A DNA stretch of 64,000 bases from Ruminococcaceae bacterium UBA1404 (GCA_002305075.1 DBQC01000022.1:22238-86237); one strand, 5' to 3'; positions 43,971-60,089 are shown, counted from the first letter of the stretch. A program made the numbers and translations. Notes: generated by a model not told the origin, from the letters alone.

Positions 43971-44191
43971 GTTTCTCCCTCACTGTTTCTATTTTTCTTC
44001 CTATAACACGCGATAGACGCGTTTTAGACGTCAAACACTCCCGTTAAGTATAAGCAAAAAAGCGCTTTTTTGCAAGTCCTTTGCCAAATAATTAATAAAT
44101 TGTAACATAAGGATTCATTATAGACGCCCATGTCGCCCCATGTTATGATAAATTCATCAAGGGCTTAGCCCGGAAAGGAAGGCGAAAATCT

Positions 44192-44620: not shown

Positions 44621-44637
44621 TATCTTCCTGCTGCAAC

Positions 44638-44672
44638 AAGGCCGGCCCCCTGCGGGGGCCGGCCTAATTTTG
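44638..44672. terminator. Bidirectional terminator
   Basis: aaggccggccccc / gggggccggcctt followed by a T-rich tail. Confidence 0.8.
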
Positions 44673-45101
44673 TTACTGCCCTGCCATAAGCTGGGCGATG
44701 CGAGCCTTGAGCGCTTGGTATGCCTTCCGGGGATGGTCCAGAGGAAGGGCTACCGCTTCGAGTGGGCAGATGCCGTCTCCCTGCCGATTGAGGATGTGGG
44801 CCACCCGCTTCTCGTAGCTATGGGGGATGCCCTGCTCGGTGAGATAGGCAATGGCCGAGTCGCTCATGGTCTGGCCCCAGACCGACTGTACGCCACCTAA
44901 CACGGCCACCATGGCCGCCGCCTTACCGATGAGCTTATCGGTCAGCGCCACCCCCTGCAGCAGATTGGGGTCGGTGTCCAGCAGCAGTATGAGCGGACGG
45001 ATGCCGCTTCCTCGCAGGGCAAAGCACAGGCTCTCCCCTCGCAGTCCTATGCAGGTGTAGCGGCCCGCCTCGATGTGGCCTTTTGCGTCCATCTCTCCCA
45101 C
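44673..45101 (-). CDS. DUF1893 domain protein
   Basis: YTC........S...GI.PL......L.G....DK.IGKAAA...V.GGV..V....MS..A...L...GI...Y...V..I.NR....CP.E pattern. 73 nt downstream of abgT on the same strand. The start is uncertain (GTG 45101 or ATG 45092). Confidence 0.65.
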   Translation of the reverse strand: MGEMDAKGHIEAGRYTCIGLRGESLCFALRGSGIRPLILLLDTDPNLLQGVALTDKLIGKAAAMVAVLGGVQSVWGQTMSDSAIAYLTEQGIPHSYEKRVAHILNRQGDGICPLEAVALPLDHPRKAYQALKARIAQLMAGQ

Positions 45102-45174
45102 GCCCCTTTACTGGGGCTATTTTACGCCGGAGAGGTCGCGCTGTCAAGCCGCAGCGTGGGTGTGGGCATATCCG

Positions 45175-46722
45175 TTAGATGGTCAGCGGAATGTCGCCAA
45201 TCATCACCGGGGCACCGGGACCCAGAGGTAGATTGAGCAGGTACCAGATTATTACCTGTCCGAACCAGACCACAATGCCGCCCAGCATATAGGGGATGCT
45301 GCCTTGGGAGAGGATGTCACCCAGGGTAAAGTCGGGGTCGTAGGTTTCGTTGATCATGGTGATAATCATGTACACATAGACATTGATGGGGCTAATGATA
45401 CCCAGCCAACTGCGCCCGGCCCTCTGGACAACCTGTGTAAAGGCCGGATGGTAGCCCATGAACATGAACATGGGGATAAAGATCGGGGCCATAATGGAAT
45501 ACTGGGCCGAGTTGGAACTGACCAAAAGGCCTACCAGCGCCGTAATAAGCATATAGGCCATAAAGAGCGGTATACCCTTGAAGTTGATGGCCACCAGCAG
45601 GTCGGCCCCAGCGATGGAGAGGATGGTGCCGATGTTGGTCCATGTAAACAATGCGGTAAACTGGGCGATGGCAAACACCTGTACAATATAGGTATTAAAC
45701 GATCCGGTCTTTTTGGCCAGCACCTTGGTGATGTCCTTCTCCGTTTTCATAAATCCGGTGGAAAAACCATAGATGAGCCCGGCGGTTAGGAACATGCCAA
45801 AAAGCAGCGGAATGATGCCGCCAAGGAAGGGCGAGCCGTTAATTTTGCCGTCGTCGGTGAGCAAAAATCCCGTCAAAAGGCCAACCACAATAACGCCTAT
45901 GTAGAGCAAAATTCCCAGTCCGGTGCGGCCTAGGGCCTTGTTCTGCAGCGGTGTTAGGGGATCTTCCTGTAGCTTAGCAGAGCCTTTATACTCGCCAAAG
46001 CTCTTGGTGATCACCGTCTCGGTAATGATTGCGCAAACAATGGTGTTGATGATGCAGGAGACAAACATAAAGTAGTAGTTGCAGGTGACCTCCACCAGCA
46101 ATGCGGGGTTGTTGGAGGCGATGGGCACCGCTGTATTGGTGATGCCTTGGTGCAGCGCATCGGTGCCCGCAATGGCCATCTGGGAGTGGAAGCCGAGCGA
46201 GCCGGCCGCCCGACCGCAGATAAAGCCCACAATGGGGTTTTTGCCTGCGCCCAAAAAGAGCATTCCGGCCATGGGCGGGATGATAACCGAGGCGGCGTCT
46301 GAGGCGAGGTTGCCCATGCAGCCCACCCAGCATACGGCCACGGTGAGCAGCGTAGGCGACATACCGCCCATAAACTTTTTAAGGGCGGCCTTAACCAGCC
46401 CCACTTCCTCGCAGAGACCGATGCCAAAGTTCATCACCAGCACAAGACCCAGCGGTGCATATCCGGTGAAGTTGGTGATCATCTTGCTTAGGAACCAGAC
46501 CACGCCATCCTTGCTAAAAAAGTTGCGGACCGTGACAATTTGCTGGTTGGAAGGGTTGGTGACCTGCACTCCCATGGAGGAGAGCAGCAGCGAAACAATA
46601 GCCGTGACCACAAAGAAGATGAGAAAGAGCATGAGCGGTGAGGGCAGCTTGTTGGCGGCCCTGGCAAAGGCGTCCATAAACTTTTCGAGCCAGTTTTTTT
46701 GGACGGTAGTATCGGCGCGCAT
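45175..46722 (-). CDS. abgT: AbgT-family transporter (p-aminobenzoyl-glutamate transporter family)
   Basis: 515-aa polytopic protein with an N-terminus (FL..F...ANKLP.P..LF...F) and overall layout typical of AbgT/MtrF. Confidence 0.85.
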   Translation of the reverse strand: MRADTTVQKNWLEKFMDAFARAANKLPSPLMLFLIFFVVTAIVSLLLSSMGVQVTNPSNQQIVTVRNFFSKDGVVWFLSKMITNFTGYAPLGLVLVMNFGIGLCEEVGLVKAALKKFMGGMSPTLLTVAVCWVGCMGNLASDAASVIIPPMAGMLFLGAGKNPIVGFICGRAAGSLGFHSQMAIAGTDALHQGITNTAVPIASNNPALLVEVTCNYYFMFVSCIINTIVCAIITETVITKSFGEYKGSAKLQEDPLTPLQNKALGRTGLGILLYIGVIVVGLLTGFLLTDDGKINGSPFLGGIIPLLFGMFLTAGLIYGFSTGFMKTEKDITKVLAKKTGSFNTYIVQVFAIAQFTALFTWTNIGTILSIAGADLLVAINFKGIPLFMAYMLITALVGLLVSSNSAQYSIMAPIFIPMFMFMGYHPAFTQVVQRAGRSWLGIISPINVYVYMIITMINETYDPDFTLGDILSQGSIPYMLGGIVVWFGQVIIWYLLNLPLGPGAPVMIGDIPLTI

Positions 46723-46770
46723 GGTGACATTCCCCCTTACATCGGCATTGACATTATAGCGTACGCTTAT

Positions 46771-46799
46771 ATCTTAAGGGTTTGCAAAATAGATGTCAA
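46771..46799 (-). promoter_or_regulatory. Candidate sigma-70 promoter for abgT
   Basis: On the minus strand: TTGACA (rev-comp of 46794-46799), 17-nt spacer, TAAGAT (46771-46776). Lies ~45 nt upstream of the abgT ATG. Confidence 0.45.
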
Positions 46800-47199
46800 G
46801 CATTAACAATATATTCGTCAAATTCACTAAAAATGTAGGCATTTTTTCTAAAAATAGTTAGTTTAACCTAGACATTATGGGATATTATTGCAATTTGTAC
46901 AAGCTCATTCCGAATGGGTCCGTCTAAAATATAATGGTTCCTTATTTTAGGACACACAAAATATGAACAAAAGTCACGATTTGTTCATATATTCGGCCCC
47001 ATCCTACTTTTTTCACCTTTGTGTTTGTTTGATTCCCCCGCAGCTCCCTTGTTTTATATGTATTTTGGCGAGCGGGTAAACTTGTCTTTGCTGCGCCAAA
47101 AGGTTTTCGGTTTTTTCACCAAACTTTAGAGCACTTTTTCTCCGTTTGGTCGAAATGCCCTATTGGGTACCTATTTATATACAAATGTGCTATGCGCTC

Positions 47200-47243
47200 C
47201 GGAAAAAGTTAAAGGCCGCTGCGCAGTTAGCGCAGCGGCCTTA
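47200..47243 (-). terminator. Strong terminator after M20 paralog P1
   Basis: 13-bp stem aaggccgctgcgc / gcgcagcggcctt. On the minus strand it is followed by TAACTTTTTCC. Confidence 0.8.
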
Positions 47244-47274
47244 TTAGCCTGCTATGGGTAGGAAGGCTGCCAGT

Positions 47275-48702
47275 CTACCAGATCTCGGGCATATAGCCCT
47301 CGGGCAGGGGGTTGGGGTAGGTCTCTCCGTCCAGATCCTCAATCCACTGGGCTCGGGCGGCGGCCACCAGCTCGGGGTCGGTCATAAAGTCCAGCACTGC
47401 GCAAGCCATCGCCTTAGAGGCGGCAAACATGGCCTTGTGGGCGTTGGAGCTGCATCCCTGCGCTGTGGCCTGCCAGGAGTGGGCAGCCGTGGCCGGCGCC
47501 CAGGTGGCGGTGGTCAGCTGTGCTGTGGGCACAACCCAACTCACATCGCCCACATCGGTAGAGCCGCCGGCACCCATGTCGACCGAGGGGGCCACCACAT
47601 TGAGAATGGGCTCCCTAAGCCAGCGCTCGGCCTCGGCCTTGGGCAGTAGCTTTTTAATGCTGCCGACAAGGTTGTCTCTGTCCATCTGGGTGGTCACGGC
47701 GGTAAAGCGGCGAGCGTATTCCAGCTCCTCCTCGGTGTAGTCGATGGGTACAAAGTTGCGCAGATGAGCATCCAGCCGGGCGGCGATAACCTTGTTGGTG
47801 ATGAGGTCGGAGTAGGCCGACACCTGCTTGATTTCTACGGTGGTCTCGGTGATGAGGGCGGCGCCCTTGGCAATGTTGTCGATGCGGCGCTTAAGCTCCT
47901 GAACCTGGGTTACCTTGGGCGCCCGAATGGCATAGAGAACCTGCGCTCTGGACTGCACCACATTGGGAGCGGTGCCGCCACTGTCGGTAACGGCGTAGTG
48001 CACCCGAGCCTGGCTGATCATATGCTCGCGCATATAGTTGACGCCCACATTCATAATTTCCACGGCGTCGAGGGCAGAACGGCCCAAATGGGGTGAGCCG
48101 GCGGCATGGGCCGAAGTGCCGTGGAAGGTATAGAACACCCGGAAGTTGGCCAGCGAGCTGCCCAAAGAGACCTGATTAACCGTGCTGGGGTGCCATGTTA
48201 TGGCGATGTCGCAGTCGTCAAAAAGGCCGTCCCGCACCAAAAAGGCCTTGCCGCCGGCGTTTTCTTCGGCGGGGCAGCCATAGTAGCGGATGGTGCCGGG
48301 AATATCGTTCTGCTCCATATACTCCTTAACCGCCGTGGCTGCCGCAGCCGAACCCGCACCCAGCAAATGGTGGCCGCAGCCATGTCCCTGACCGCCCGCT
48401 TCCACCGGGTCGTGCTCGGTGACATCGGCCTTTTGCGATAGGCCGGACAGCGCATCGAACTCGCCTAAGATGGCGATAACCGGCTTGCCGCTTCCCCATT
48501 CGGCGATAAAGGCCGTCTCCTGACCGGCCAGCCCTGCCCGAATGCTAAAGCCCAAATCGGCCAAAACCTTCTGCTGCAGCTCAGACGATTGATACTCCTG
48601 AAACCGAGGCTCGGCAAAGCCCCAGATGCGGTCGCTCATGTCTGTAAAAAGTGCCTCATGTTTCGTTATTAGGGCTGCTATGTCCTGACTTCTTTTGTCC
48701 AT
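47275..48702 (-). CDS. AbgB-type M20D amidohydrolase, paralog P1 (clade A)
   Basis: 475 aa. Motifs DRIWGFAEPRFQE, GKPVIAILGEFDALSGLSQ, GHGCGHH, PAEENAGGK, SAHAAGSPHLGRSALDA, GSTDVGDVSW, C-terminal PEIW. ATG 48702 lies 8 nt after GGAGG. Confidence 0.9.
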   Translation of the reverse strand: MDKRSQDIAALITKHEALFTDMSDRIWGFAEPRFQEYQSSELQQKVLADLGFSIRAGLAGQETAFIAEWGSGKPVIAILGEFDALSGLSQKADVTEHDPVEAGGQGHGCGHHLLGAGSAAAATAVKEYMEQNDIPGTIRYYGCPAEENAGGKAFLVRDGLFDDCDIAITWHPSTVNQVSLGSSLANFRVFYTFHGTSAHAAGSPHLGRSALDAVEIMNVGVNYMREHMISQARVHYAVTDSGGTAPNVVQSRAQVLYAIRAPKVTQVQELKRRIDNIAKGAALITETTVEIKQVSAYSDLITNKVIAARLDAHLRNFVPIDYTEEELEYARRFTAVTTQMDRDNLVGSIKKLLPKAEAERWLREPILNVVAPSVDMGAGGSTDVGDVSWVVPTAQLTTATWAPATAAHSWQATAQGCSSNAHKAMFAASKAMACAVLDFMTDPELVAAARAQWIEDLDGETYPNPLPEGYMPEIW

Positions 48703-48734
48703 GCTGGACACCTCCTTAGGTTGTAAAACACCTG

Positions 48735-48763
48735 ACGCTCCCCCGGACCGGCCGGGGGAGCGT
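48735..48763 (-). terminator. GC-rich hairpin between P2 and P1 (possible attenuator or partial terminator)
   Basis: 12-bp perfect stem acgctcccccgg / ccgggggagcgt with a 5-nt loop. The minus-strand tail is CAGGTGTTTTA. Confidence 0.35.
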
Positions 48764-48796
48764 TTGGTATCATATCTCAGATGGGTAAAATGTGCA

Positions 48797-50224
48797 TTAC
48801 CAGATCTCGGGCATGTAGCCTTTGGGCAGAGGATTGGGATAGGTCTCGCCGTCCAGGTCCTCAATCCACTGGGCTCGGGCAGCAGCCACCAGCTCGGGGT
48901 CGGTCATGAAGTCCATCGCCGCGCAGGCCATGGTCTTGGCGGCCACAACAAGGCCCTTGTCGGCCACGGGACCCTTGGCTTGGGCGGTGGCCTGCCAGGA
49001 GTGACCGGCCGTACCGGGCGCCCAGGTGGCTGTGCTGATTTGGGCGGTGGGTACCACCCAGCTTACATCGCCCACATCGGTGGAGCCACGGCCAAGCACC
49101 GTGGTGGGTGCCACAAAGTTGTAGATGGCGGCGCCGTTCCACTTATTAAAGTCTTCCTTATTGGGCAGCACCTTTTTAAGCAGTTCGGGCATATTCTTGC
49201 GGTCGAGATCGGTGATAACCTTGGTAAACTTGCGGGCGTATTCCATCTCCTCATCGGTGTATTCCACCGGTACAAAAGCACTAAGGTGCGCACCCAACTG
49301 CTTTTCGATAACCGCATTCGAGATGGTGTTGGAATAGGCCGACACCTGCTTGATTTCTACGGTGGTCTCGGTGATGAGGGCGGCGCCCTTGGCGATGTTG
49401 TCGATGCGGCGCTTGAGCTCCTGCACCTCGGTCACCTTGGGGGCACGAATGGCATAGAGAACCTGGGCTCTGGACTGCACCACATTGGGGGCGGTGCCGC
49501 CGGTGTCGATGACAGCATAGTGCACCCGAGCGTCCGAAATCATATGCTCACGCATATAGTTTACGCCCACATTCATAATCTCCACGGCATCCAGCGCCGA
49601 GCGGCCCAAGTGGGGTGCACCGGCGGCGTGGGCCGAAGTGCCGTGGAAGGTGTAGAACACCCGGAAGTTGGCCAGCGATCCGCCGGCTGAGACCATATTA
49701 AACTGGTTGGGATGCCAGCAGATGGCGATATCGCAGTCATCGAAAAATCCGTCACGCACCAAGAAGGCCTTTCCGCCGGCGTTCTCTTCGGCGGGGCAGC
49801 CATAGTAGCGGATGGTGCCGGGCAGGTTATGCTTTTCCATGTACTCCTTGACAGCCGCCGCCGCCGAAGCCGAGGCCGCGCCGAGGATATTGTGGCCGCA
49901 ACCGTGGCCCTGATCCATGCCGGCGACCGGGGTATGTACATCGCAGTCGGCCTCCTGAGAGAGGCCGGACAGGGCGTCGAACTCACCTAAGATGGCGATA
50001 ACCGGCTTGCCGCTGCCCCATTCGGCGATAAAAGCCGTCTCCTCTCCGGCGAGACCCACGGTGTTTTTAAAGCCTAACTCCTCCATGACCTTTTGCTGCA
50101 GCTCGGATGATTTGTACTCCTGGAAACGGGGCTCGGCAAACCCCCAGATCTGATGGCTCATGTCGATGAAGATGTCCTTACGGTCGTCCACCAACTGGGC
50201 TATTTCTGCTCTTCTCTTTTCCAC
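48797..50224 (-). CDS. AbgB-type M20D amidohydrolase, paralog P2 (clade A)
   Basis: 475 aa counted from GTG 50224, which lies 6 nt after GGAGG at 50231-50235. The track TTG 50242 lies upstream of the SD. Same motif set as P1. Confidence 0.9.
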   Translation of the reverse strand: MEKRRAEIAQLVDDRKDIFIDMSHQIWGFAEPRFQEYKSSELQQKVMEELGFKNTVGLAGEETAFIAEWGSGKPVIAILGEFDALSGLSQEADCDVHTPVAGMDQGHGCGHNILGAASASAAAAVKEYMEKHNLPGTIRYYGCPAEENAGGKAFLVRDGFFDDCDIAICWHPNQFNMVSAGGSLANFRVFYTFHGTSAHAAGAPHLGRSALDAVEIMNVGVNYMREHMISDARVHYAVIDTGGTAPNVVQSRAQVLYAIRAPKVTEVQELKRRIDNIAKGAALITETTVEIKQVSAYSNTISNAVIEKQLGAHLSAFVPVEYTDEEMEYARKFTKVITDLDRKNMPELLKKVLPNKEDFNKWNGAAIYNFVAPTTVLGRGSTDVGDVSWVVPTAQISTATWAPGTAGHSWQATAQAKGPVADKGLVVAAKTMACAAMDFMTDPELVAAARAQWIEDLDGETYPNPLPKGYMPEIW

Positions 50225-50242
50225 AGTGCTCCTCCTTTGCAA

Positions 50243-51673
50243 TTACCAAATTTCAGGTTTGTATCCTTCGGGCAGCGGCGATTTATAAACTTGGCCATCC
50301 AGCTCTTCAAGCAGGGCTATTCTAGCCTTGTCTACCAAGGTGGGATCTAAAATAAAGGAAAGGCCGGTGAGCGCCATGACCTTGGACGCATAAAGCATCC
50401 CCTTATGTGTCACTGAGCTCTTGCCTTGGGCGGTCTCCAGCCAACTGTGGCCGGTGCAGCCCATGGAATAGCAGCTGACAAAGCACCAGGCGGTGGGCAC
50501 CACCCAGCTTACATCCCCTACATCGGTGGAGCCGGAACCCTTGGGATAGCGGGTAAACAGCACATCCGAGATGGGCTTTTGCATATGGGCCTCGAGCTCG
50601 GCGCCTTTAAGTCCCAGATACTGCTGAGCCAATGCCTTGTAGTTTTGTATATCGGCCTCGGGGGTGGCGTCCTTAAACTTCTGAAGGTAGACAAGCTCCT
50701 CGTCGGTATAGGTGAGGGTGTGGTGCAGCGCCTCCATATACTTTTGCATCTCGGCGCCTACAACGCTGTTGGCAAGGTAGTTGGTATAGGCCGACACCTG
50801 CTTGATTTCCACCTCGGTTTCGGTGATGAGGGCGGCGCCCCTGGCGATGTTGTCGATGCGGCGCTTAAGCTCCTGCACATCGGTCACCTTGGGGGCCCGA
50901 ATGGCATAGAGAACCTGGGCTCTAGACTGCACCACATTGGGGGCGGTGCCGCCGGTGTCGGTGACGGCGTAGTGTACGCGGGCGTCCGAAATCATATGCT
51001 CGCGCATATAGTTTACGCCCACATTCATAATTTCCACGGCATCCAGCGCCGAGCGGCCCAGATGGGGTGCGCCGGCAGCGTGGGCCGAAGTGCCCTTAAA
51101 TGTGTAGAATACTCGGAAGTTGGCGAGAAGGCCCGTGGGCTGAAGGCCGGTGCTGGTGCCGGTGTGCCAGGTGATGGCAATGTCGCAGCCGTCAAAAGCG
51201 CCGTCGCGTACCATAAACGCCTTGCCGCCCGCGTTCTCCTCGGCCGGGCAGCCGTAAAACCGCACCGTGCCCTTAAGGCCCGCTTCGGTCATGTAGTCCT
51301 TGAGGGCCACCGCCGCGCCGGCAGAGCCGGCACCCAGTGTGTGATGACCGCATCCATGGCCCTGGCCGCCCTCCTCGATGGGGGTGTGCACAGCGACATC
51401 GGCCTGTTGAGACAGGCCGGACAGCGCATCGTACTCGCCTAAAAAGCCGATAACCGGTTTGCCCTCGCCCCACTGGCTCATAAAGGCTGTATCGGCCCCG
51501 CCTATGCCCCAGGTTGTTTTAAAGCCCTGGCTCTCCAGCAGCTCGGCCAGCAACTTCGCCGATTTAACCTCCTGAAAGCGGGGTTCTGCAAAGGCCCAGA
51601 TCTGATCGTTTGCTTCGATAAACAGGTCGCGTTTGTGTTCGACAAGCTCGGATATACGGTTTATGTAATCCAT
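50243..51673 (-). CDS. AbgB-type M20D amidohydrolase, paralog P3 (clade A, divergent pocket motif)
   Basis: 476 aa from ATG 51673. Same motif set as P1. Carries VVPTAWCFVSCYSMGCTGHSW instead of VVPTAQ.TTATWAPGTAGHSW. Confidence 0.9.
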   Translation of the reverse strand: MDYINRISELVEHKRDLFIEANDQIWAFAEPRFQEVKSAKLLAELLESQGFKTTWGIGGADTAFMSQWGEGKPVIGFLGEYDALSGLSQQADVAVHTPIEEGGQGHGCGHHTLGAGSAGAAVALKDYMTEAGLKGTVRFYGCPAEENAGGKAFMVRDGAFDGCDIAITWHTGTSTGLQPTGLLANFRVFYTFKGTSAHAAGAPHLGRSALDAVEIMNVGVNYMREHMISDARVHYAVTDTGGTAPNVVQSRAQVLYAIRAPKVTDVQELKRRIDNIARGAALITETEVEIKQVSAYTNYLANSVVGAEMQKYMEALHHTLTYTDEELVYLQKFKDATPEADIQNYKALAQQYLGLKGAELEAHMQKPISDVLFTRYPKGSGSTDVGDVSWVVPTAWCFVSCYSMGCTGHSWLETAQGKSSVTHKGMLYASKVMALTGLSFILDPTLVDKARIALLEELDGQVYKSPLPEGYKPEIW

Positions 51674-51832
51674 AACATCCTTCCCCTTTCTCTTGTGACA
51701 GCAAGCCCGTTCATGGTGCCTTTGGCAGGCGAATAGTTGTCCACCCACCACTTAAACTATACGGGGCAAGCCCTAAAATAATACCAGCATTTTAAGGCCA
51801 TACCGCAAGGGGTGGCAGGGGCATCCTTTTTT

Positions 51833-51861
51833 ATTATACCTGCTTTTTTGATATGGAACAA
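51833..51861 (-). promoter_or_regulatory. Sigma-70 promoter for P3-P2-P1
   Basis: On the minus strand: TTGTTC (rev-comp of 51856-51861), 17-nt spacer, TATAAT (51833-51838). Confidence 0.6.
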
Positions 51862-51989
51862 TTAGCACAAACGATGATATTTATGCCGGGTTTTTGTGGG
51901 TTCTTACAGGTGTTTGCGCAGTTTTTATATCGTGCAAAAACACCCCCACTTGGCAGCAGAGTGGGCCGGGTGGCGGTGAAGATCTAAAC

Positions 51990-52027
51990 CATTATAGAAT
52001 TGCGCCCGTCCTGATGGACGGGCGCAG
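51990..52027 (-). terminator. Hairpin terminator after P4
   Basis: tgcgcccgtcc / ggacgggcgca stem immediately after the P4 stop. The minus-strand U-tail is weak (ATTCTATAAT). Confidence 0.5.
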
Positions 52028-52031
52028 TTTG

Positions 52032-53483
52032 TTACATCTTATCCCCCACGGCGATGGGCACCGCATCGGCGGGGATAGGGCAGCGGTAGCTTTCGCCCCC
52101 AAGCTTTTTCTCCCACTCGGCCTTGGCGGCTGCCACAATGTCGGGGTTCTCATAAATATCAATAGCGGCGCCGGCCAACACCCGACTGGCGCAGAGCACC
52201 CCCTTGTGAGCAATGGAGGTGTTGCCAATGGCCACATTCTGCCAAGAGTGGCCGGGGCTGTTGGAAGCCTGGGTCACCGTGGTAATCTGGGCCGTGGGGC
52301 AAATCCAGCTGACATCCCCCACATCGGTGGAGCCCATGCGCATGGCGGTGCTGGAATAATAGGGCACCAAGAAGTCGTTTAGGGGTCGGCCGTCGGCAAT
52401 TTTGGATTTGACATACTCGCCGATTTCGGGGTCCTGATTGGCCGCAAAGCCGGGCAGCACGGTGCGGGGGTTCTCGTAGGTTTTGATAAGGGCGGCCGCC
52501 AGCGCTTTCTCCTCTTCGGTGTAGCTGGGCACACCGATCTGGGCAAAGTTGTCATAAAGCAGCTTTTCTAAGGTGAAATTGGGCACCGTATTGGAGGTGC
52601 CGTCGATAAAGCGGCGCTTTAGGGTGGTCTCGGTCATAAGGGCGGCACCCTCGGCAATTTTGTCCAGCCGCTTTAGCAAATCGAGGGCCTGGCCCACCTT
52701 TTGGGAGCGCACCATGTAGAGCACTTGAGCCTCGGGCTGCACCACATTGGGCGAGTATCCGCCGGCGTCGGTGATGGCGTAGTGGATGCGGGCCGAATCG
52801 ATCATATGCTCGCGAAGGAACTGCACGCCCACATTCATCAGCTCCACGGCGTCCAGCGCCGAACGACCCAAATGGGGGTCGCCGGCAGCGTGGGCCGATA
52901 CACCGGTAAACTTATACTCTATCTGCAAGCTGGAGTTGCAGGTACCGGTGGTCACCTCATTGGTGCTGCCCGGATGCCAACAAAAGGCGATATCCAGCTC
53001 GTCGAACACGCCGTCCCGGGCCATAAAGGCCTTGCCGGCGCCCCCCTCCTCGCCGGGGGTGCCGTAGAACACCAGCGTACCGCTGCCCTCGGGTTTGGAC
53101 TCTAAGTAAGCCTTAACGGCCAGCGCTGCGCCAAAGGAGCCGGCCCCCAAGGCGTGGTGGTGGCAACCATGACCGGGCTTGCCTGCCTCTATGGGGCGAC
53201 GCTCGGCCATACCTCCCTGCTGAGAGAGGCCATCCAGCGCATCGTATTCGGCGAGAATGCCGATAATCGGTCGTCCGCTGCCCACCCTGCCGAGAAAGGC
53301 GGTATCCATGCCGGCCACCGGTGTCTGTACATCAAAGCCCTCATCCTTGAGCTTTTGGATATAGAAGGCCGCCGACTTTTTCTCGAGCAGCGACAGCTCG
53401 GCGTAGTCCCATATGGTGTCGCTTACCTCGATGATTAAATCCTGTTTTTGGTTTATCACCTCAAGGGCGTCTTGCTTGGTCAT
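52032..53483 (-). CDS. AbgB-type M20D amidohydrolase, paralog P4 (clade B, most divergent)
   Basis: 483 aa. Motifs DTIWDYAE, ILAEYDALDGLSQ, GHGCHHH (G to H variant), PGEEGGAGK, SAHAAGDPHLGRSALDA, GSTDVGDVSW. Confidence 0.9.
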   Translation of the reverse strand: MTKQDALEVINQKQDLIIEVSDTIWDYAELSLLEKKSAAFYIQKLKDEGFDVQTPVAGMDTAFLGRVGSGRPIIGILAEYDALDGLSQQGGMAERRPIEAGKPGHGCHHHALGAGSFGAALAVKAYLESKPEGSGTLVFYGTPGEEGGAGKAFMARDGVFDELDIAFCWHPGSTNEVTTGTCNSSLQIEYKFTGVSAHAAGDPHLGRSALDAVELMNVGVQFLREHMIDSARIHYAITDAGGYSPNVVQPEAQVLYMVRSQKVGQALDLLKRLDKIAEGAALMTETTLKRRFIDGTSNTVPNFTLEKLLYDNFAQIGVPSYTEEEKALAAALIKTYENPRTVLPGFAANQDPEIGEYVKSKIADGRPLNDFLVPYYSSTAMRMGSTDVGDVSWICPTAQITTVTQASNSPGHSWQNVAIGNTSIAHKGVLCASRVLAGAAIDIYENPDIVAAAKAEWEKKLGGESYRCPIPADAVPIAVGDKM

Positions 53484-53521
53484 GACCTCATTTCCTTTCC
53501 GTTTTGGAATCTATGAGGATT

Positions 53522-53549
53522 ATTATATACCTTGGCGAGGGATTTGCAA
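53522..53549 (-). promoter_or_regulatory. Sigma-70 promoter for P4
   Basis: On the minus strand: TTGCAA (53544-53549), 16-nt spacer, TATAAT (rev-comp of 53522-53527). Lies ~32 nt before the P4 ATG. Confidence 0.6.
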
Positions 53550-53563
53550 AGTGTATTTTTCTG

Positions 53564-53627
53564 TTTATGCGCATAAAATAAAGTTTTTTGCGATTTTGCC
53601 TTGCTTTATTGTTATTATATGCGCATA
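53564..53627. promoter_or_regulatory. Two copies of a TATGCGCATA palindrome (operator-like sites) upstream of the P4 promoter
   Basis: Perfect 14-bp palindrome TTTATGCGCATAAA at 53564-53577 and perfect 10-bp palindrome TATGCGCATA at 53618-53627. Centres are 52 bp apart. Confidence 0.5.
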
Positions 53628-53658
53628 AATATTGGAGGGCCGGCAGCGCCGACCCTCC
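53628..53658 (-). terminator. Hairpin terminator after P5
   Basis: ggagggccgg / ccgaccctcc stem with one mismatch. The minus-strand tail is AATATTTATG. Confidence 0.45.
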
Positions 53659-53680
53659 GGGTTTAAGTAGCGTTTTTTTC

Positions 53681-55135
53681 TTATAGCTGACCGATGGCCC
53701 GAGGCTTTACGCCCTTGGGGATGGGGCAGATATAGCTTTCGTCGCCCAGGCGCTTTTTGAACTCGGCCTTGGCCTCCTCGATAATCTCGGGGTTCTCAAT
53801 CAGGTCGATGGCGGCGCCTCCCATAACCTTGCCGGCAAACAGCACACCCTTGTGGGCAATGCTGGTCTTATTGCAGGCCACATACTGCCAGGAGTGGCCG
53901 GGGGTGCCGGCGGCGGTGGTCACTGCCGAAATCTGAGCCGTGGGGGCTATCCAGCTGACATCGCCCACATCGGTAGAGCCGGCGCTGGGCACATTGGAGG
54001 TATAAAAGGGCATGAGGAAGTCGTAAAGCGGCCGGTCTTCTTTGAGAATGGCCTCCAATTCCTCGGGCAGCTCGGACAGTTTGAGCCGCCTGGTAATAAC
54101 CTCGATGGGGTCGAAGGGGCTCTCGTAGCTCTTTTGCACTTCGGTGGCAAAGGCCTTTTCCTCCTCGGTGTAGGTGGGAACGCCGATTTCCTGCATATTT
54201 TTATAGAGCACCTTCTCGAGCGTGGTGTTGACAATGGTGTTCGAGCAGCCCTTGACAAAGTCGATCTCCAACTCGGTCTCGGTCATCATGGCAGCGCCCT
54301 GGGCGATCTTGTTGACCCGGGCATAGAGCTCCTGCACCTGGCTGTTTTTGGGCGAGCGAATGAGATAGAGCACCGAGGCTTTGGGCTGCACCACATTGGG
54401 CGAGTAGCCGCCGGTGTCCAAAATGGCGTAGTGGATGCGGGCGGCGTCGATCATGTGCTCTCTGAGGAACTGCACACCCACATTCATCAGCTCCACGGCG
54501 TCCAGAGCCGAGCGGCCCAGATGGGGGTCACCGGCGGCGTGGGCCGACACGCCCTTAAACTTATACAGCACCTGCACATTGGCGTTGGAAGAACCGCTGG
54601 CAATGGCGTTGTAGCTGGCCGGATGCCAGGTGAGGGCCACATCGATGCCGTCGAACACACCCTCGCGGGCCATAAAGGCCTTACCCGAGCCGCCCTCCTC
54701 GCCGGGGCAGCCAAAGTAGATGATGGTACCCTCTTTGCCGGTGGCCTCCAGATACTCCTTGGCCGCCACCGCAGCAGCCAGGCTGGCCACACCCAGGCAG
54801 TTGTGTCCGCAGCCGTGGCCGGGTTTGCCGGGCTCTATCGGGGTTTTAACCGGGTTGCCACCCTCCTGCGAAAGGCCGGACAGCGCATCGTACTCACCTA
54901 AAAAGCCGATAACCGGGCTGCCGCTGCCCCAGGTGCCCGTAAAAGCGGTGGCCACATCGGCCACGCCCTTTTCCACCTTAAAGCCGTTCTTCTCAAGCAG
55001 TTCGCAGAGCTTATCCATGCTCTTAAACTCCTCAAAGGCGGTTTCGGCATACTCCCAGATACGGTCGTTGGCATCGATGAACATATCGCGTTTGTCTTCT
55101 ACTGCTTGTAGGGCTTTGCGCTTTGCCTGCTCCAT
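53681..55135 (-). CDS. AbgB-type M20D amidohydrolase, paralog P5 (clade B)
   Basis: 484 aa from ATG 55135, 8 nt after GGAGG. Motifs DRIWEYAETAFEE, GFLGEYDALSGLSQ, GHGCGHN, PGEEGGSGK, GSTDVGDVSW, C-terminal CPIPKGVKPRAIGQL. Confidence 0.9.
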   Translation of the reverse strand: MEQAKRKALQAVEDKRDMFIDANDRIWEYAETAFEEFKSMDKLCELLEKNGFKVEKGVADVATAFTGTWGSGSPVIGFLGEYDALSGLSQEGGNPVKTPIEPGKPGHGCGHNCLGVASLAAAVAAKEYLEATGKEGTIIYFGCPGEEGGSGKAFMAREGVFDGIDVALTWHPASYNAIASGSSNANVQVLYKFKGVSAHAAGDPHLGRSALDAVELMNVGVQFLREHMIDAARIHYAILDTGGYSPNVVQPKASVLYLIRSPKNSQVQELYARVNKIAQGAAMMTETELEIDFVKGCSNTIVNTTLEKVLYKNMQEIGVPTYTEEEKAFATEVQKSYESPFDPIEVITRRLKLSELPEELEAILKEDRPLYDFLMPFYTSNVPSAGSTDVGDVSWIAPTAQISAVTTAAGTPGHSWQYVACNKTSIAHKGVLFAGKVMGGAAIDLIENPEIIEEAKAEFKKRLGDESYICPIPKGVKPRAIGQL

Positions 55136-55223
55136 GGGATTGTCCTCCTTTTGGTCGCATAAGGTGGAAGGCCACAAAGAGGCTGGGCCAAAGCGATGCT
55201 TCGGCCCATGCCTTGTGGTCTGC

Positions 55224-56675
55224 TTACAGTTGTCCGATGGGACGGGGCTTTATGCCAGCGGGGATGGGGCAGACATAGCTTTCGCCGCCCAGCCGCTTTT
55301 GATGCTCGGCCTTGGCCTCGGCAACAAGCTCGGGATTGTTGATGAGGTCGATGGCGGTGGCACCCAGCACCTTACCGGTGTAAAGAACACCCTTGTGGGC
55401 AATAGAGGTCTTATTGCAGGCCACATACTGCCAGGAGTGACCGGGGGTGCCGGCGGCAGTGGTAACCACATTGATCTGGGCTGTGGGAGCTACCCAGGAT
55501 ACATCGCCCACATCAGTGGAGCCGGCCATGGGGGTGGTGGAGTTGAGATAGGGCATGAGGAAGTCGTTGAGGCTGGGACGAGCCTTAAGCTTCTCTTCGA
55601 CTTCGGGGGTCATGTGGTCGCCGAACTTATCCATAAACTTGGTGTATTCATCGCCGGGATTCTCGTAGCTCTTTTGCACTTCGGCGGCAAAGGCCTTCTC
55701 TTCCTCGGTGTAGGTGGGAACGGGAATCTCCTGCATATTCTTATACAGGGCCTTTTCGAGGGTGGCGTTGACGATGAGGTTGGAGCAGCCCTTGACAAAG
55801 TCGATCTCCAGCTCGGTCTCGGTCATCAGAGCAGCACCACGGGCAATTTTGTTCACCCGCTCGTAGAGCTCCTGCACCTGGGCATTCCTAGGCGAACGGA
55901 TGAGATAGAGCACCGAGGCTTTGGGCTGCACCACATTGGGCGAGTAGCCGCCGGTGTCCATAATGGCGTAGTGGATGCGGGCAGCATCGACCATGTGCTC
56001 TCTGAGGAACTGCACGCCCACATTCATCAGCTCCACGGCGTCCAGAGCCGAGCGGCCCAGATGGGGGTCGCCGGCGGCGTGGGCCGACACACCCTTAAAC
56101 TTATACAGCACCTGCACATTGGCATTGGAGGAGCCGGTAAAAATCATGTTGGCCGTGCTGGGATGCCAGCAGAGTGCAATATCAAGATTATCAAACACGC
56201 CTTCGCGGGCCATAAAAGCCTTGCCCGAGCCACCCTCTTCGCCGGGGGTGCCGTAGTAGACGATGGTGCCCGACTTGCCGGTGGCCTCCAGATACTCCTT
56301 GGCCGCCACAGCGCCGGCTAGGCTACCCACGCCCAGGCAGTTATGTCCACAGCCATGGCCGGGTTTGCCGGGCTCTATCGGGGTTTTAACCGGGTTGCCA
56401 CCCTCCTGCGAGAGGCCGGACAGCGCATCGTACTCACCTAAAAAGCCGATAACCGGGCTGCCGCTGCCCCAGGTACCACTAAAGGCGGTGGGGATGTCGG
56501 CAACGTTCTTCTCTACTTTAAAGCCGTTTTTCTCGAGGAGTTCGCAGAGCTTATCCATGCTCTTGTATTCCTCAAAGGCTGTTTCGGCGTACTCCCAGAT
56601 GCGGTCGTTGGCATCGATGTACATATCCTTCTTGGCGTCGACACCTGCAATTGCTTGGGCTTTGAACTGATCCAT
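55224..56675 (-). CDS. AbgB-type M20D amidohydrolase, paralog P6 (clade B)
   Basis: 483 aa from ATG 56675. Same motif set as P5. Confidence 0.9.
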   Translation of the reverse strand: MDQFKAQAIAGVDAKKDMYIDANDRIWEYAETAFEEYKSMDKLCELLEKNGFKVEKNVADIPTAFSGTWGSGSPVIGFLGEYDALSGLSQEGGNPVKTPIEPGKPGHGCGHNCLGVGSLAGAVAAKEYLEATGKSGTIVYYGTPGEEGGSGKAFMAREGVFDNLDIALCWHPSTANMIFTGSSNANVQVLYKFKGVSAHAAGDPHLGRSALDAVELMNVGVQFLREHMVDAARIHYAIMDTGGYSPNVVQPKASVLYLIRSPRNAQVQELYERVNKIARGAALMTETELEIDFVKGCSNLIVNATLEKALYKNMQEIPVPTYTEEEKAFAAEVQKSYENPGDEYTKFMDKFGDHMTPEVEEKLKARPSLNDFLMPYLNSTTPMAGSTDVGDVSWVAPTAQINVVTTAAGTPGHSWQYVACNKTSIAHKGVLYTGKVLGATAIDLINNPELVAEAKAEHQKRLGGESYVCPIPAGIKPRPIGQL

Positions 56676-56791
56676 GGGAAATGCGCTCCTTTCATTTTGA
56701 AGGTCTTTTTTAGAAGGCGGATGCCAAGGCATCCCCAAAACTAAGCCCACAGAACCGCAGTATAGATAGCGCTGCGGCCCCGAGGGAGGGC

Positions 56792-58243
56792 TTACAGCTT
56801 ACCGATGGGCCGGGGGGCAACGCCTGCGGGGATGGGGCAGATATAGCTGTCGCCACCCAGGCGCTTTTTGTGCTCGGCCTTGGCGGCTTCGAGCACTTCG
56901 GGGTTATCAATCAGATCAATAACCGTGGCACCCATAACCTTGCCTGCGTAGATGACACCCTTGTGGGCAATAGAGGTCTTATTACAGGAGACATACTGCC
57001 AGGAGTGACCGGGGGTGCCGGCGGCAGTGGTAACAGCCTGCATCTGGGCCGTGGGAGCTACCCAGCTGACATCGCCTACATCGGTAGAACCGGGAGCTAC
57101 GGCATTGGAAGTGATAAAGGGCATGAGGAAGTCGTTGAGGCTGGGGCGGGCCCGCAGCTTCTCCTCAACTTCGGGGGTCATGTGGTCCCCATATTCCTCC
57201 ATAAGCCTGGCATATTCGTCGCCGGGGTTCTCGTAGCTCTTTTGTATCGCGGCGGCAAAGGCCTTTTCTTCCTCGGTATAGGTGGGAACCGGAATGGCCT
57301 CCATGTTCTTATAGAGGGCCTTTTCGAGGGTGCTGTTGATCACCATATTGGAGCAGGCCTTGACAAAGTCGATCTCCAGCTCGGTCTCGGTCATCATGGC
57401 AGCGCCCTGGGCAATCTTGTTGACCCGGGCGTAGAGCTCCTGTACCTGGGCATTCTTGGGCGCACGGATGAGATAGAGTACCGATGCCTTGGGCTGCACC
57501 ACATTGGGGGAGTAGCCGCCGGTGTCTAAAATGGCGTAGTGGATGCGCGCAGCGTCGATCATGTGCTCTCTTAGGAACTGCACACCCACATTCATCAGCT
57601 CCACGGCGTCCAGAGCCGAGCGGCCCAGATGGGGGTCGCCGGCGGCGTGGGCCGACACGCCCTTAAACTTATAAAGCACCTGCACATTGGCCAGATAGGA
57701 GCCGGTCATGATGCAGTTGGTGGTACCGGGGTGCCAGGTGATGGCGGCATCGATGCCATCAAACACGCCTTCGCGGGCCATAAAAGCTTTACCGGAGCCG
57801 CCCTCCTCGCCGGGGGTGCCAAAGAAGATGACGGTGCCCTCTTTGCCGGTGGCCTCCAGATACTCCTTGGCCGCTACGGCGGCAGCCACGCTGGCTACGC
57901 CAAAGCAGTTGTGTCCGCAGCCGTGGCCGGGAGCGCCGGGGATAATGGGTGTTTTAACCGGATTGCCACCCTCTTGGGAAAGGCCGGAAAGCGCATCGTA
58001 CTCGCCGAGGATGCCGATAACCGGGTTGCCGCTGCCATAGGTGCCCTTAAAGGCGGTGGCAAGGTTGCCAATGCCCTTTTCCACCGCAAAGCCGTTTTGC
58101 TCCAGCAGCTCGCAGAGCGTCTCCATGCTCTTAAATTCCTCAAAAGCCGTTTCGGCGTATTCCCAGATGCGGTCGTTGGCTTCGGCATAAACATCATACT
58201 TGGCATCTACGCCCGCCAGGGCTTGTTTTTTCATCTGTTCCAT
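56792..58243 (-). CDS. AbgB-type M20D amidohydrolase, paralog P7 (clade B)
   Basis: 483 aa from ATG 58243 after AAGGAG. Same motif set as P5. Confidence 0.9.
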   Translation of the reverse strand: MEQMKKQALAGVDAKYDVYAEANDRIWEYAETAFEEFKSMETLCELLEQNGFAVEKGIGNLATAFKGTYGSGNPVIGILGEYDALSGLSQEGGNPVKTPIIPGAPGHGCGHNCFGVASVAAAVAAKEYLEATGKEGTVIFFGTPGEEGGSGKAFMAREGVFDGIDAAITWHPGTTNCIMTGSYLANVQVLYKFKGVSAHAAGDPHLGRSALDAVELMNVGVQFLREHMIDAARIHYAILDTGGYSPNVVQPKASVLYLIRAPKNAQVQELYARVNKIAQGAAMMTETELEIDFVKACSNMVINSTLEKALYKNMEAIPVPTYTEEEKAFAAAIQKSYENPGDEYARLMEEYGDHMTPEVEEKLRARPSLNDFLMPFITSNAVAPGSTDVGDVSWVAPTAQMQAVTTAAGTPGHSWQYVSCNKTSIAHKGVIYAGKVMGATVIDLIDNPEVLEAAKAEHKKRLGGDSYICPIPAGVAPRPIGKL

Positions 58244-58283
58244 GTTCTTCTCCTTATGTAAAATAAATTTCAAATCTGCACAC

Positions 58284-59729
58284 CTAGTTTTTAGAGCCGA
58301 TGGCCCGCGGCTTTACGCCCTTGGGAATGGGGCAGACATAGCTGCTGCCGCCCAGGCGCTTTTTAAGCTCGGCCTTGGCAGCCCCTAAGAGTTCGGGGTT
58401 ATCAATAAGGTCAATGCCGGCGCCGGCCATCACCTTGCCGGCCGTGAGCACGCCCTTATGGGCCACCGAGGTATTGCTCATGGCCACATTCTGCCAGGAG
58501 TGCCCTGGAGAGCGGGCCGCCCAGGTAAGGGCGCTGATTTGGGCCGTGGGGCAAACCCAGCTGACATCGCCCACATCGGAGGAGCCGGGGGATACCGTCT
58601 CAAAGCTGACATGGGGCAGCAAAAAGTCGTTGATGGACACATCCTCGGCCTGACGCTCGGCAATCATCTCGGCCCAGACCTCGGACATCTTAGCCATGGA
58701 GTCCGCCGCACCCGGCGACTCGTAACTGGCAATGATCTCTCGGCAGAGCTGGCGCTCCTCCTCGGTATAGGTGGGCAGTCCCACTTCCTCGTAGTTCTTA
58801 TAGAGCACCGATTCGATGACATTGTTGGGCACAATGTTAGAGCAGGCCTTAATAAAGTCTATGGTCAGCTCGGTTTCGGTCATCATGGCAGCGCCCCGGG
58901 CAATCTTCTCTACCCGCTTGGCTAGCTCGAGCACCTGCGGGGTTTTGGGCGAACGGATGAGATAGAGCACATCGGCGGTGGGTTGCACCACATTGGGCGA
59001 GTAGCCGCCTGTGTTGGTGATGGCGTAGTGGATGCGGGCCGAATCGATCATATGCTCGCGAAGGAACTGCACGCCCACATTCATCAGCTCCACGGCGTCC
59101 AGCGCCGAACGGCCCAGATGCGGGTCGCCGGCGGCGTGGGCCGACACGCCCTTAAACTGATATTCAATTTGAACATTGGCAAGGTTGGATCCACTGCGCA
59201 CATTAAAGGTGCTGGCCGGGTGCCATGTGATACAGGCGTCGCACTCGTCAAAAACGCCCTCTCGGGCCATAAAAGCCTTGCCCGAGCCGCCCTCCTCGCC
59301 GGGGCAGCCAAAGTAGATCACCGTGCCCGATTTGCCGGGGTTGTTCTCTAAGTAGTGTTTTACAGCCATCACCGCCGCCAGCGAACCGGCACCTAAGTTG
59401 TTGTGACCGCAGCCGTGGCCGGGTCCGCCGGGAACAATGGGTGTTTTAACCGCGACGCCACCTTCTTGAGAGAGGCCGGAAAGGGCATCGTACTCGCCCA
59501 AAAAGCCGATGACGGGTTTGCCGCTGCCAAAGCGACCGGTAAAGGCGGTGGGCACATCGGCCACACCCTTCTCCACCTCAAAGCCCTGGGCAGCCAGCGC
59601 GTCACAGAGGATGTCCATCGAGATAAACTCCTGGAAAGCCGTCTCGGGATTTTCCCAAAGACGGTCGTTTACCTCAATGATTACTTCGCTGCGTGCATCG
59701 ATGATAGACAAAGCCTGCTTCTTGTCCAA
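58284..59729 (-). CDS. AbgB-type M20D amidohydrolase, paralog P8 (clade B)
   Basis: 481 aa. TTG 59729 is the only in-frame start that keeps the conserved N-terminus (in-frame TGA 18 nt upstream). GGAGAGG SD 6 nt upstream. Confidence 0.88.
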   Translation of the reverse strand: MDKKQALSIIDARSEVIIEVNDRLWENPETAFQEFISMDILCDALAAQGFEVEKGVADVPTAFTGRFGSGKPVIGFLGEYDALSGLSQEGGVAVKTPIVPGGPGHGCGHNNLGAGSLAAVMAVKHYLENNPGKSGTVIYFGCPGEEGGSGKAFMAREGVFDECDACITWHPASTFNVRSGSNLANVQIEYQFKGVSAHAAGDPHLGRSALDAVELMNVGVQFLREHMIDSARIHYAITNTGGYSPNVVQPTADVLYLIRSPKTPQVLELAKRVEKIARGAAMMTETELTIDFIKACSNIVPNNVIESVLYKNYEEVGLPTYTEEERQLCREIIASYESPGAADSMAKMSEVWAEMIAERQAEDVSINDFLLPHVSFETVSPGSSDVGDVSWVCPTAQISALTWAARSPGHSWQNVAMSNTSVAHKGVLTAGKVMAGAGIDLIDNPELLGAAKAELKKRLGGSSYVCPIPKGVKPRAIGSKN

Positions 59730-60089
59730 AAATAGCCTCTCCCTTCATAAAAAAAGATTATTCGGCCAGTAGTTTACACCCTGTAATCTATACCTATATT
59801 TTATCTAATTTGGCATCTCCTTAGCAAGATACAGAATACACAAAGGATTATGGCCCTTATTGTTCCTTCTAACCTAAGCGAGAAAATCCATTTAAGTCTA
59901 TGCTGCATTTGGGCCGGACATGCCGAACACCGCTGCGCGAGCAACTTGGGATGCAGCCCCTTCAAAGCCTCTATACGCCTTGTAATTACCGCAAAATATG
60001 CTATACTATTAAGATAAACATCGCTTTGGTTTGCCAAATTTTTTAGCCACGCTCGGTGGCTTACTTTATTTTGTCAGGAGGTTCCTTTC

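Follow-up and report, generated by a model that had tools for sequence, protein, structure and literature searches.

The abg locus of Escherichia coli (abgR / abgA-abgB-abgT) is known for the import and cleavage of p-aminobenzoyl-glutamate (PABA-Glu), and its hydrolase, PGH, is a Mn2+-dependent AbgA2AbgB2 heterotetramer (PMC5082436). HmrA of Staphylococcus aureus prefers Met-X dipeptides; it has one gene, which belongs to an hmrA/ldmS operon (PMC9486568). CsAga cleaves N-acyl-glutamine at a Cys-bridged di-zinc site, and both HmrA and CsAga are homo-oligomers (PMC11511702). HmrA and human PM20D2 are dipeptidase/aminoacylase-type enzymes (PMC9486568, PMC11511702). Here, we analyzed a 64-kb stretch of DNA, referred to as the window, from Ruminococcaceae bacterium UBA1404 (GCA_002305075.1, DBQC01000022.1:22238-86237). 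Eight AbgB-type M20D amidohydrolase genes (P1-P8) lie there in tandem, together with genes for an AbgT-family transporter and a TM1506/DUF1893 protein. The host of this array is an uncultured member of the Oscillospiraceae, one of the gut-type Clostridia, and its relatives are Oscillospiraceae, too. It seems probable that the locus is a battery of eight functional, diverged, cytoplasmic amidohydrolases of the dipeptidase/aminoacylase type, which have diverged substrate preferences and supply amino acids.

The array shares with the abg locus an AbgB-type M20D protein of ~481 amino acids (aa) and an AbgT gene downstream on the same strand. It differs in having eight AbgB paralogs instead of one, in having neither an AbgA subunit nor a divergent LysR regulator (AbgR), and in the additional TM1506 gene. 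Its AbgT is only 35% identical to the E. coli protein, falls below the equivalog cut-off and is, by prediction, separately punctuated. HmrA (M20D, PDB 3RAM; a Met-X carboxydipeptidase/aminoacylase) is the closest structure by both sequence and fold and shares the GH.CGH, P.EE and H.P motifs, but it has 394 aa, lacks a three-helix insert of ~60 residues, is encoded by a single gene and is 26% identical. Human PM20D2 (a beta-alanyl-lysine / Xaa-Arg dipeptidase; PDB 7YH4, 8XZC) is the second-closest structure (TM 0.83-0.86) and is likewise a cytosolic M20D-type enzyme; however, it is eukaryotic, single-copy, 23% identical and not linked to a transporter. The Arabidopsis ILR1-like hydrolases of indole-3-acetic acid-amino-acid conjugates and Corynebacterium AgaA are also M20D enzymes that cleave acyl-amino-acid conjugates (family: PMC11511702), but they have the canonical 390-440 aa, lack the AbgB insert, are dispersed rather than tandem and are 15-18% identical. 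The last gene of the cluster encodes a clear homologue of Thermotoga maritima TM1506 (PDB 1VK9; deaminase-like fold, predicted NAD/ADP-ribose binding). TM1506 proteins have been predicted to bind NAD/ADP-ribose, and their genes are linked to membrane-transport genes (Iyer et al. 2011, PMC3239186). The partners described there are a 5TM channel with an aldo/keto reductase, or a TonB-like receptor, whereas the partner here is an AbgT-family transporter. In the searchable literature on AbgB/M20, DUF1893 and tandem M20 paralogs of gut Clostridia, no such array was described. An earlier note on this DNA knew of no described system with this architecture either. The architecture itself is not unique to this genome.

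Ten open reading frames (ORFs) follow one another on the minus strand at 44673-59729, with the coordinates given in the earlier note. None has an internal stop, and each start is preceded by a Shine-Dalgarno sequence 5-9 nt upstream. The eight hydrolase ORFs (47275-59729, minus strand) are intact, co-directional and 475-484 aa long. From the 5′-most gene to the 3′-most gene the ten ORFs are as follows.

58284-59729, minus: P8, AbgB-type M20D amidohydrolase, 481 aa, TTG start, opens the B module (TIGR01891 249 bits; 48% identity to E. coli AbgB)
56792-58243, minus: P7, AbgB-type M20D amidohydrolase, 483 aa, belongs to the P5-7 subgroup with changing copy number (78-80% aa identity to P5/P6)
55224-56675, minus: P6, AbgB-type M20D amidohydrolase, 483 aa (profile matches and E. 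coli AbgB alignment)
53681-55135, minus: P5, AbgB-type M20D amidohydrolase, 484 aa (profiles, E. coli AbgB alignment and AlphaFold2 model)
52032-53483, minus: P4, AbgB-type M20D amidohydrolase, 483 aa, GHGCHHH variant, closes the B module (orthologs E7, L004_13609 and L172 copy 3)
50243-51673, minus: P3, clade-A AbgB-type amidohydrolase, 476 aa, opens the A module (ortholog E8)
48797-50224, minus: P2, clade-A AbgB-type amidohydrolase, 475 aa, GTG start (ortholog E9)
47275-48702, minus: P1, clade-A AbgB-type amidohydrolase, 475 aa (ortholog E10)
45175-46722, minus: AbgT-family secondary transporter "type 1", 515 aa (PF03806 414 bits)
44673-45092, minus: TM1506/DUF1893 protein, 139 aa from ATG 45092 or 142 aa from GTG 45101 (PF08973 121.6 bits)

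For the TM1506 gene, ATG 45092 is the more likely start, and it is the start called in a JGI contig.

All eight hydrolases matched Peptidase_M20 (PF01546) and M20_dimer (PF07687) above the Pfam gathering scores. They scored 239.7-272.2 bits against the M20D profile TIGR01891, for which the cut-off is 153.75. With AbgB of E. coli K-12 they aligned over the full length (42-48% identity, 459-486 aligned residues, E = 1e-126 to 1e-158), and with AbgA only partially (24-30% identity); the E. coli proteins were taken from NC_000913. The assignment to the AbgB-type M20D family proposed in the earlier note is therefore well supported. No AbgA-type protein was found in the 64-kb window, where a phmmer search with E. 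coli AbgA matched only P1-P8 (E = 1e-11 to 1e-15). No LysR-family regulator was matched among the scanned ORFs of the window, and the divergent neighbor of the array is metG. The lack of an AbgA partner and of a linked regulator, also part of the original description, thus stands.

The paralogs are divided into clade A (P1-P3) and clade B (P4-P8). Protein identity within clade A is 75% between P1 and P2 and about 60% for P3. Within clade B it is 78-81% among P5, P6 and P7, 64-68% for P8 and 56-59% for P4, and between the two clades it is 43-48%. The same split stands in the earlier note, which gave clade B a common IG(Q/K)L-like end; the clade-B ends are AIGQL, PIGQL, PIGKL, AIGSKN and AVGDKM. 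The note had also assigned a set of six motifs to all copies. Three of the six (GHGC[GH]H, P[AG]EE and SAHAAG.PHLGRSALDA) are literally present in 8/8, whereas the other three occur as conservative variants, such as GSPVI/GRPII, GSSDVGDVSW in P8 and HQIW in P2.

Residues C109, H111, E146, E147, H171 and H414 (P5 numbering) are invariant in P1-P8 and across an alignment of 49 homologues. The same is true of SAHAAG.PHLGRSALDA in the dimerisation domain and of GS(T/S)DVGDVSW. P1-P8 are predicted to carry a dinuclear metal site that contains a Cys, together with a Glu as general base; the motifs concerned are GH.CGH, P.EE and H.P, with a C-terminal His. The Cys presumably bridges the two metals, by analogy with CsAga (PMC11511702) and with M20D enzymes in general. 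No signal peptide or transmembrane segment was detected in P1-P8, which points to a cytoplasmic location. An AlphaFold2 model of P5 (pLDDT 92.4, pTM 0.91) has the two-domain M20 fold, with a catalytic domain and an inserted dimerisation domain. In a Foldseek search with this model, HmrA was the best match (TM 0.92), followed by PM20D2 (0.86) and then by CsAga and the AbgA-like 3IO1. A sequence search against solved structures agreed, with HmrA again the closest (E = 1.8e-42). The insert that HmrA lacks corresponds to P5 residues about 321-384, and the paralogs vary more here than anywhere else. In addition, 33 positions are fixed within ortholog groups and different between them. They are concentrated at columns 29-33, 254-338 and 396-423, the last range flanking the His414 ligand.

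We surveyed relatives of the array in 78 GTDB species-representative loci (±10 kb) and in 80 metagenome loci of clade-A relatives. Almost all the GTDB loci have one AbgB-type gene; five have two and one (L004) has six. The single-copy loci include those of Intestinimonas, Pseudobutyricicoccus and Fimivivens (Oscillospiraceae), other Clostridia, Bifidobacterium and Enterococcus. Of the 80 metagenome loci, 46 are single-copy, 33 contain a tandem pair and one contains three copies in a row. Arrays of at least six copies were confined to the lineage of the window in the sample examined and always lay beside metG. Tandem AbgB-type pairs are common in gut metagenome contigs (L109, L128, L130, L135 and ~30 more, several of them named human gut). 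These are 58-64% identical to P1 and have no AbgT within the fetched flanks.

A counterpart is found in a sister species (ENA contig k141_382555, L083/L084), which has 10 copies and an AbgT 77% identical to that of the window. Its gene order begins with metG, seven clade-B copies and three unrelated genes, one of the ornithine-cyclodeaminase family. It continues with three clade-A copies, patatin, AbgT, an M20 fragment, TM1506, PCC, OAD_beta and PspA. The gap between its B and A blocks (L083 12615-14899) holds an ornithine-cyclodeaminase/mu-crystallin-family gene and two ORFs, and the patatin-like gene is at L084 8702-9547. The equivalent regions of the window, 51674-52031 (358 bp) and 46723-47274 (552 bp), are AT-rich gaps only, and tblastn of these P4-P3 and P1-AbgT gaps revealed no remnants of the ornithine cyclodeaminase, the patatin or the 105-aa and 266-aa ORFs. 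In a second, more distant relative (L004 and L171, the same contig), metG is followed by another M20 gene and five clade-B copies; a different AbgT (40% identical) and an IS30-like transposase come next, and then two clade-A pseudogenes. The transposase and the pseudogenes lie at L171 13368-17800. The pseudogenes are disrupted by a premature stop near codon 356 and by a frameshift, while the five clade-B copies are intact. A third (L172) has the glutamate dehydrogenase gene, tatD, metG, P8-type, P6-type and P4-type copies and a second type of AbgT (45% identical). L086, from the same sample, carries patatin, AbgT (73% identical) and TM1506. The second type of AbgT lies directly 3′ of the clade-B block (L172 10001-11554; L171 11587-13140), is 40-45% identical to the AbgT of the window and is not present in the window. 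By its gene order, the array architecture is common to a small clade of uncultured Oscillospiraceae, with a variable copy number. The synteny survey suggested in the earlier note located the array beside metG with 10 copies, with five plus pseudogenes, or with three.

In a neighbor-joining tree, five paralogs have 1:1 orthologs in the sister array, in the same gene order (P8-E1, P4-E7, P3-E8, P2-E9 and P1-E10). P5, P6 and P7 form one subgroup with E2-E6, represented by one copy in L172, three in the window and five in the sister. L004 shares the clade-A, P4-type and P5-8-type lineages. By this phylogeny there are at least three ancient lineages: clade A, P4-type and P5-8-type. The tree, the shared lineages and the second AbgT of the relatives therefore indicate two AbgB-AbgT modules side by side. 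The array is best read as a B module (P8-P7-P6-P5-P4) juxtaposed to an A module (P3-P2-P1 with AbgT and TM1506). On this reading, the AbgT that once belonged to the B module is gone, while AbgT and TM1506 persist in the A module. The idea that one module was amplified eight-fold, as first proposed, does not agree with this structure.

Between ortholog pairs, the ratio of nonsynonymous to synonymous substitution rates (dN/dS, Nei-Gojobori) is 0.09-0.15 with dS 0.95-1.4 (dN/dS is 0.137 for P8, 0.109 for P4, 0.093 for P3, 0.148 for P2 and 0.125 for P1). Among P5, P6 and P7 within the genome, dN/dS is 0.22-0.28 and dS about 0.55. These ratios indicate that every lineage is under purifying selection. 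The low values between orthologs and the invariant catalytic residues argue that all copies are maintained. Selection rather than decay, which the earlier note had inferred from the retained motifs, is thus borne out by the catalytic residues, the 1:1 orthologs and the dN/dS values.

The clade-A genes have a further feature. We compared P1-P3 of the window (47275-51673) with the sister genes (L084 3746-8528). In codons about 196-300, the core of the dimerisation domain, the proportion of synonymous differences (pS) is 0.22-0.34 between paralogs and about 0.52 between orthologs. The core clusters by genome (P1, P2 and P3 versus E8, E9 and E10), while the segments on its N- and C-terminal sides group by orthology. 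The contrast shows gene conversion that, in clade A, is limited to the central segment, a pattern of mosaic concerted evolution.

The transporter matched PF03806 with 414.1 bits (cut-off 27), over profile positions 1-500 of 502. It scored 332.4 bits against PRK11339, the equivalog of the PABA-Glu transporter, and 346.6 bits against TIGR00819, the YdaH/MtrF-type efflux subfamily. Neither cut-off (864 and 753.55, respectively) was reached. Import by this AbgT is not established, because its score is below the equivalog cut-off. The AbgT family includes exporters as well. The last gene matched PF08973 with 121.6 bits (cut-off 27). It aligned with PDB 1VK9 (E = 3.5e-12), including the DK..GKAAA stretch, and with 9E9A (E = 2.3e-5). 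The AbgT orthologs of the sister species and L086 are each followed by TM1506, so TM1506 is linked to AbgT in three lineages. AbgB is followed directly by AbgT, with no AbgA, in 11 of 79 related loci (10 Clostridia and E. coli abg). This adjacency supports a functional link between AbgB and AbgT that does not need AbgA.

The intergenic gaps from P8 to TM1506 are, in order, 40, 116, 88, 197, 358, 18, 94, 552 and 73 nt. Perfect GC-rich hairpins of 11-13 bp lie 3′ of P6, P5, P4, P2, P1 and TM1506. Their folded segments have energies of -25 to -36.5 kcal/mol (z -4.1 to -5.5), and a clear U-tract is found at just one of them, the hairpin after P1. Consensus matching located promoter-like sites 5′ of P8, P4, P3, AbgT and TM1506. 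The predicted control features are as follows.

59798-59827, minus: promoter-like site 5′ of P8, within the 360 bp between P8 and the divergent metG (9/12 matches, consensus only)
55184-55208, minus: hairpin after P6, 11-bp stem (z -5.5)
53634-53658, minus: terminator-like hairpin after P5, 11-bp stem (z -4.2)
53522-53628, minus: P4 control region, two TTATGCGCATAA palindromes 5′ of a promoter-like TTGCAA, 16 nt, TATAAT (conserved at E7)
52001-52026, minus: hairpin after P4, 11-bp stem, at the B/A module boundary (z -5.4)
48735-48763, minus: hairpin between P2 and P1, 12-bp stem (z -5.3)
47212-47242, minus: predicted terminator after P1, 13-bp GC-rich stem with a U-rich tail (-36.5 kcal/mol for an 80-nt segment, z -4.4)
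46771-46799, minus: promoter-like site 5′ of AbgT, TTGACA, 17 nt, TAAGAT, in the 552-bp AT-rich gap
45119-45147, minus: promoter-like site 5′ of TM1506, TTGACA, 17 nt, TAAAAT (11/12 matches)
44639-44665, no strand: predicted bidirectional terminator hairpin between TM1506 (minus) and PCC/DUF296 (plus) (-30 kcal/mol, z -4.1)

The hairpins, the promoter-like sites and the uneven gaps suggest that the cluster probably forms several transcription units. The predicted units are P8-P5, P4, P3-P1, AbgT and TM1506. Hairpins and promoter-like sites thus predict at least four units and not one operon. The earlier note had all eight genes feeding into one AbgT importer as one unit. The predicted hairpins and promoters, the 552-bp gap and the AbgT score below the PABA-Glu cut-off do not favor that view. 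Rfam searches at gathering thresholds detected no RNA family, riboswitches and T-boxes included, within the array or near it; two cobalamin riboswitches elsewhere were the only matches.

The region upstream of P4 differs from the others. The perfect palindrome TTATGCGCATAA occurs at 53565-53576 and again at 53617-53628, 52 bp apart and just 5′ of the promoter-like site of P4. Both boxes, the -35 block and the ribosome-binding site are kept 5′ of the ortholog E7 in the sister species (L083 10841-11031), while the other intergenic regions are not conserved between the two arrays. It therefore appears that P4 has its own operator, and the TTATGCGCATAA pair looks like a putative one. Within the window, matches with up to two mismatches number four, which is not above chance, and both good ones are at P4. 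An operator shared by the genes of the array was ruled out, since TTATGCGCATAA is confined to the region upstream of P4.

If the array is a battery of diverged enzymes, each of them would hydrolyze a small amide-linked compound at the Cys/His/Glu-ligated dinuclear metal site. The candidate substrates are dipeptides, N-acyl- or aminoacyl-amino acids, and aryl-glutamates such as PABA-Glu. The paralogs would differ in substrate preference, because the orthologs have long been kept apart and paralog-specific residues lie near the active-site motifs and in the ~60-residue insert. Plant ILR1-like M20D paralogs, which differ in conjugate specificity, provide a precedent for such divergence. The freed amino acids would enter cell metabolism. 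The neighboring AbgT might bring substrates in, or possibly take products out; the likely, though not certain, route of uptake is an AbgT-family carrier.

Several points weigh against this reading. AbgB of E. coli is active only within AbgA2AbgB2, and the tested dipeptides were not cleaved (PMC5082436). Homomeric, dipeptidase-like activity is extrapolated from HmrA and PM20D2, which are more distant. The divergence in specificity is suggested by sequence patterns alone. P5, P6 and P7 could be partly redundant, as their dS of about 0.55 and dN/dS of 0.22-0.28 would allow. AbgT seems to be set apart from P1 by the predicted terminator, the 552-bp AT-rich gap and a promoter-like site of its own, and the terminator and promoter calls are themselves consensus predictions.

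Another explanation is that the paralogs form mixed dimers or tetramers, within or between the clades. In that case there would be more enzyme species than genes, and gene conversion would keep the interface compatible. PGH sets an example as a heterotetramer (PMC5082436), and no AbgA-type protein is available in the window. Clades A and B occur together in both the window and the sister array, and the core of the clade-A dimerisation domain (residues 196-300) is homogenized by genome while its flanks follow orthology. However, conversion is expected anyway where the paralogs are most alike. In related Clostridia AbgB is normally single-copy and unaccompanied by AbgA, which implies that homomers are viable, and HmrA and CsAga are homo-oligomeric (PMC11511702). 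In L171 clade A has decayed while clade B is intact, which implies that clade B is independent of clade A. We therefore consider hetero-oligomers unlikely. A variant of the same idea, which we regard as rather improbable, is that core-limited conversion maintains interchangeable interfaces while selection drives apart the catalytic segments and the helical insert; the array would then work as an enzyme kit with many more specificities than eight.

The copies might also be largely redundant and raise the dose of one activity (e.g. on PABA-Glu or one class of dipeptides) instead of broadening specificity. The turnover of the P5-P7 subgroup fits this idea. Its dS is below that of the species split, and its count of 1/3/5 across L172, the window and the sister is typical of dosage-driven turnover. 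For the array as a whole, however, the copies are only 43-81% identical in protein, and in five lineages the 1:1 orthologs have stayed distinct, with dN/dS of 0.09-0.15. Moreover, the group-specific substitutions adjoin active-site motifs, and P4 has a separate conserved control region (predicted). Gene dosage is thus a rather improbable account of the locus, plausible only for P5-P7.

Salvage of folate catabolites as in E. coli, with import and cleavage of PABA-Glu or of folate/antifolate fragments, is suggested by the adjacent AbgT-family transporter and by AbgB being the best characterized homologue of all eight. Nevertheless, no AbgA was found in the window and no AbgR among its scanned ORFs, AbgT is far below the cut-off of the PABA-Glu transporter equivalog, and 42-48% identity does not fix the substrate specificity of M20D enzymes. 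Eight enzymes for one trace metabolite are also implausible, and we regard this explanation as very unlikely.

Finally, tandem repeats are a classic cause of mis-assembly in metagenome-assembled genomes, but an assembly artefact or a set of decaying duplicates is scarcely credible here, since the copies, only 54-82% identical in DNA, are too diverged for an assembly expansion, every ORF is intact with low dN/dS, the gene order of the orthologs is preserved in a different species, and two independent JGI contigs are collinear with the window at 99.8-99.9% identity. One of them, Ga0591956_0011998 (19 kb), is 99.83% identical over window 43681-56600, from P6 to beyond OAD_beta; the second covers the P6-P5 junction. 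By these comparisons, an artefact is refuted to the extent possible without reads.

The surroundings of the array are those of an ordinary chromosome. On one flank lie the divergent genes metG, tatD and glutamate dehydrogenase (60090-63999). The other flank begins with a PCC/DUF296 gene (44192-44620, plus strand), convergent with TM1506, followed by OAD_beta, PspA, a TPM-domain protein and a DtxR-type repressor. The PCC-OAD_beta pair adjoins the cluster in the sister species (L084), too. A mobile element or island was ruled out by the same metG-side position in four lineages and by the ordinary housekeeping flanks. Glutamate dehydrogenase and OAD_beta in the flanks might suggest a link to glutamate fermentation. 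No hydroxyglutarate-pathway genes were found in the window, so this link stays speculation. On the strand opposite the amidohydrolase genes there are long ORFs, the largest of 533 aa (54720-56321, 53852-54901 and 48695-49690 on the plus strand, and others); the simplest account is that they are by-products of a G+C-rich coding strand.

Elsewhere, the window contains a citrate lyase operon, pho/pst, lexA, mutY and the gene for a CCA-adding enzyme. Two cobalamin riboswitches precede a btuCDF-like transporter and a cbi operon. The first, at 16783-16895 (plus), is ahead of a FecCD/ABC/periplasmic-binding transporter (17018-19898). The second, at 27146-27279 (minus), is ahead of the cbiD...cbiC operon for corrin biosynthesis (19996-27090). 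The citrate lyase cluster (4629-10194) comprises citE, citF, citC and a fused CitX-CitG protein (466 aa, minus strand). Its acyl-carrier subunit has 175 aa, of which only residues 77-155 form the acyl-carrier-protein domain. A 393-aa protein at 288-1469 (minus) has the F420-0:gamma-glutamyl ligase family (PF01996) as its sole family match, over residues 10-384, which is unexpected for a genome of Clostridia.

The enzyme family is known. What is new, judging from the sequences, is the scale (8-10 copies) and a modular expansion that is lineage-restricted and long-maintained. Two further features are newly noted: the conserved operator-like repeat at P4, and gene conversion that affects just one segment, within the dimerisation domain, and makes the array a clear case of mosaic concerted evolution. 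An expansion of a peptidase family in amino-acid-using anaerobes is unsurprising in principle; nothing here yet points to new chemistry, and no open question of long standing turns on the array. Gut metagenomes are rich in AbgB-type M20D genes, whose usual annotation is "aminobenzoyl-glutamate utilization protein B". With five to ten paralogs conserved individually and next to one another, this lineage is a natural experiment for mapping the specificity determinants of the subfamily, and substrate screens could be designed directly from the ortholog pairs and their paralog-specific residues. Should the copies act on amino-acid conjugates from host, diet or drugs (for example N-acyl amino acids, unusual dipeptides or antifolate fragments), the array would represent a specialized scavenging niche in uncultured Oscillospiraceae.

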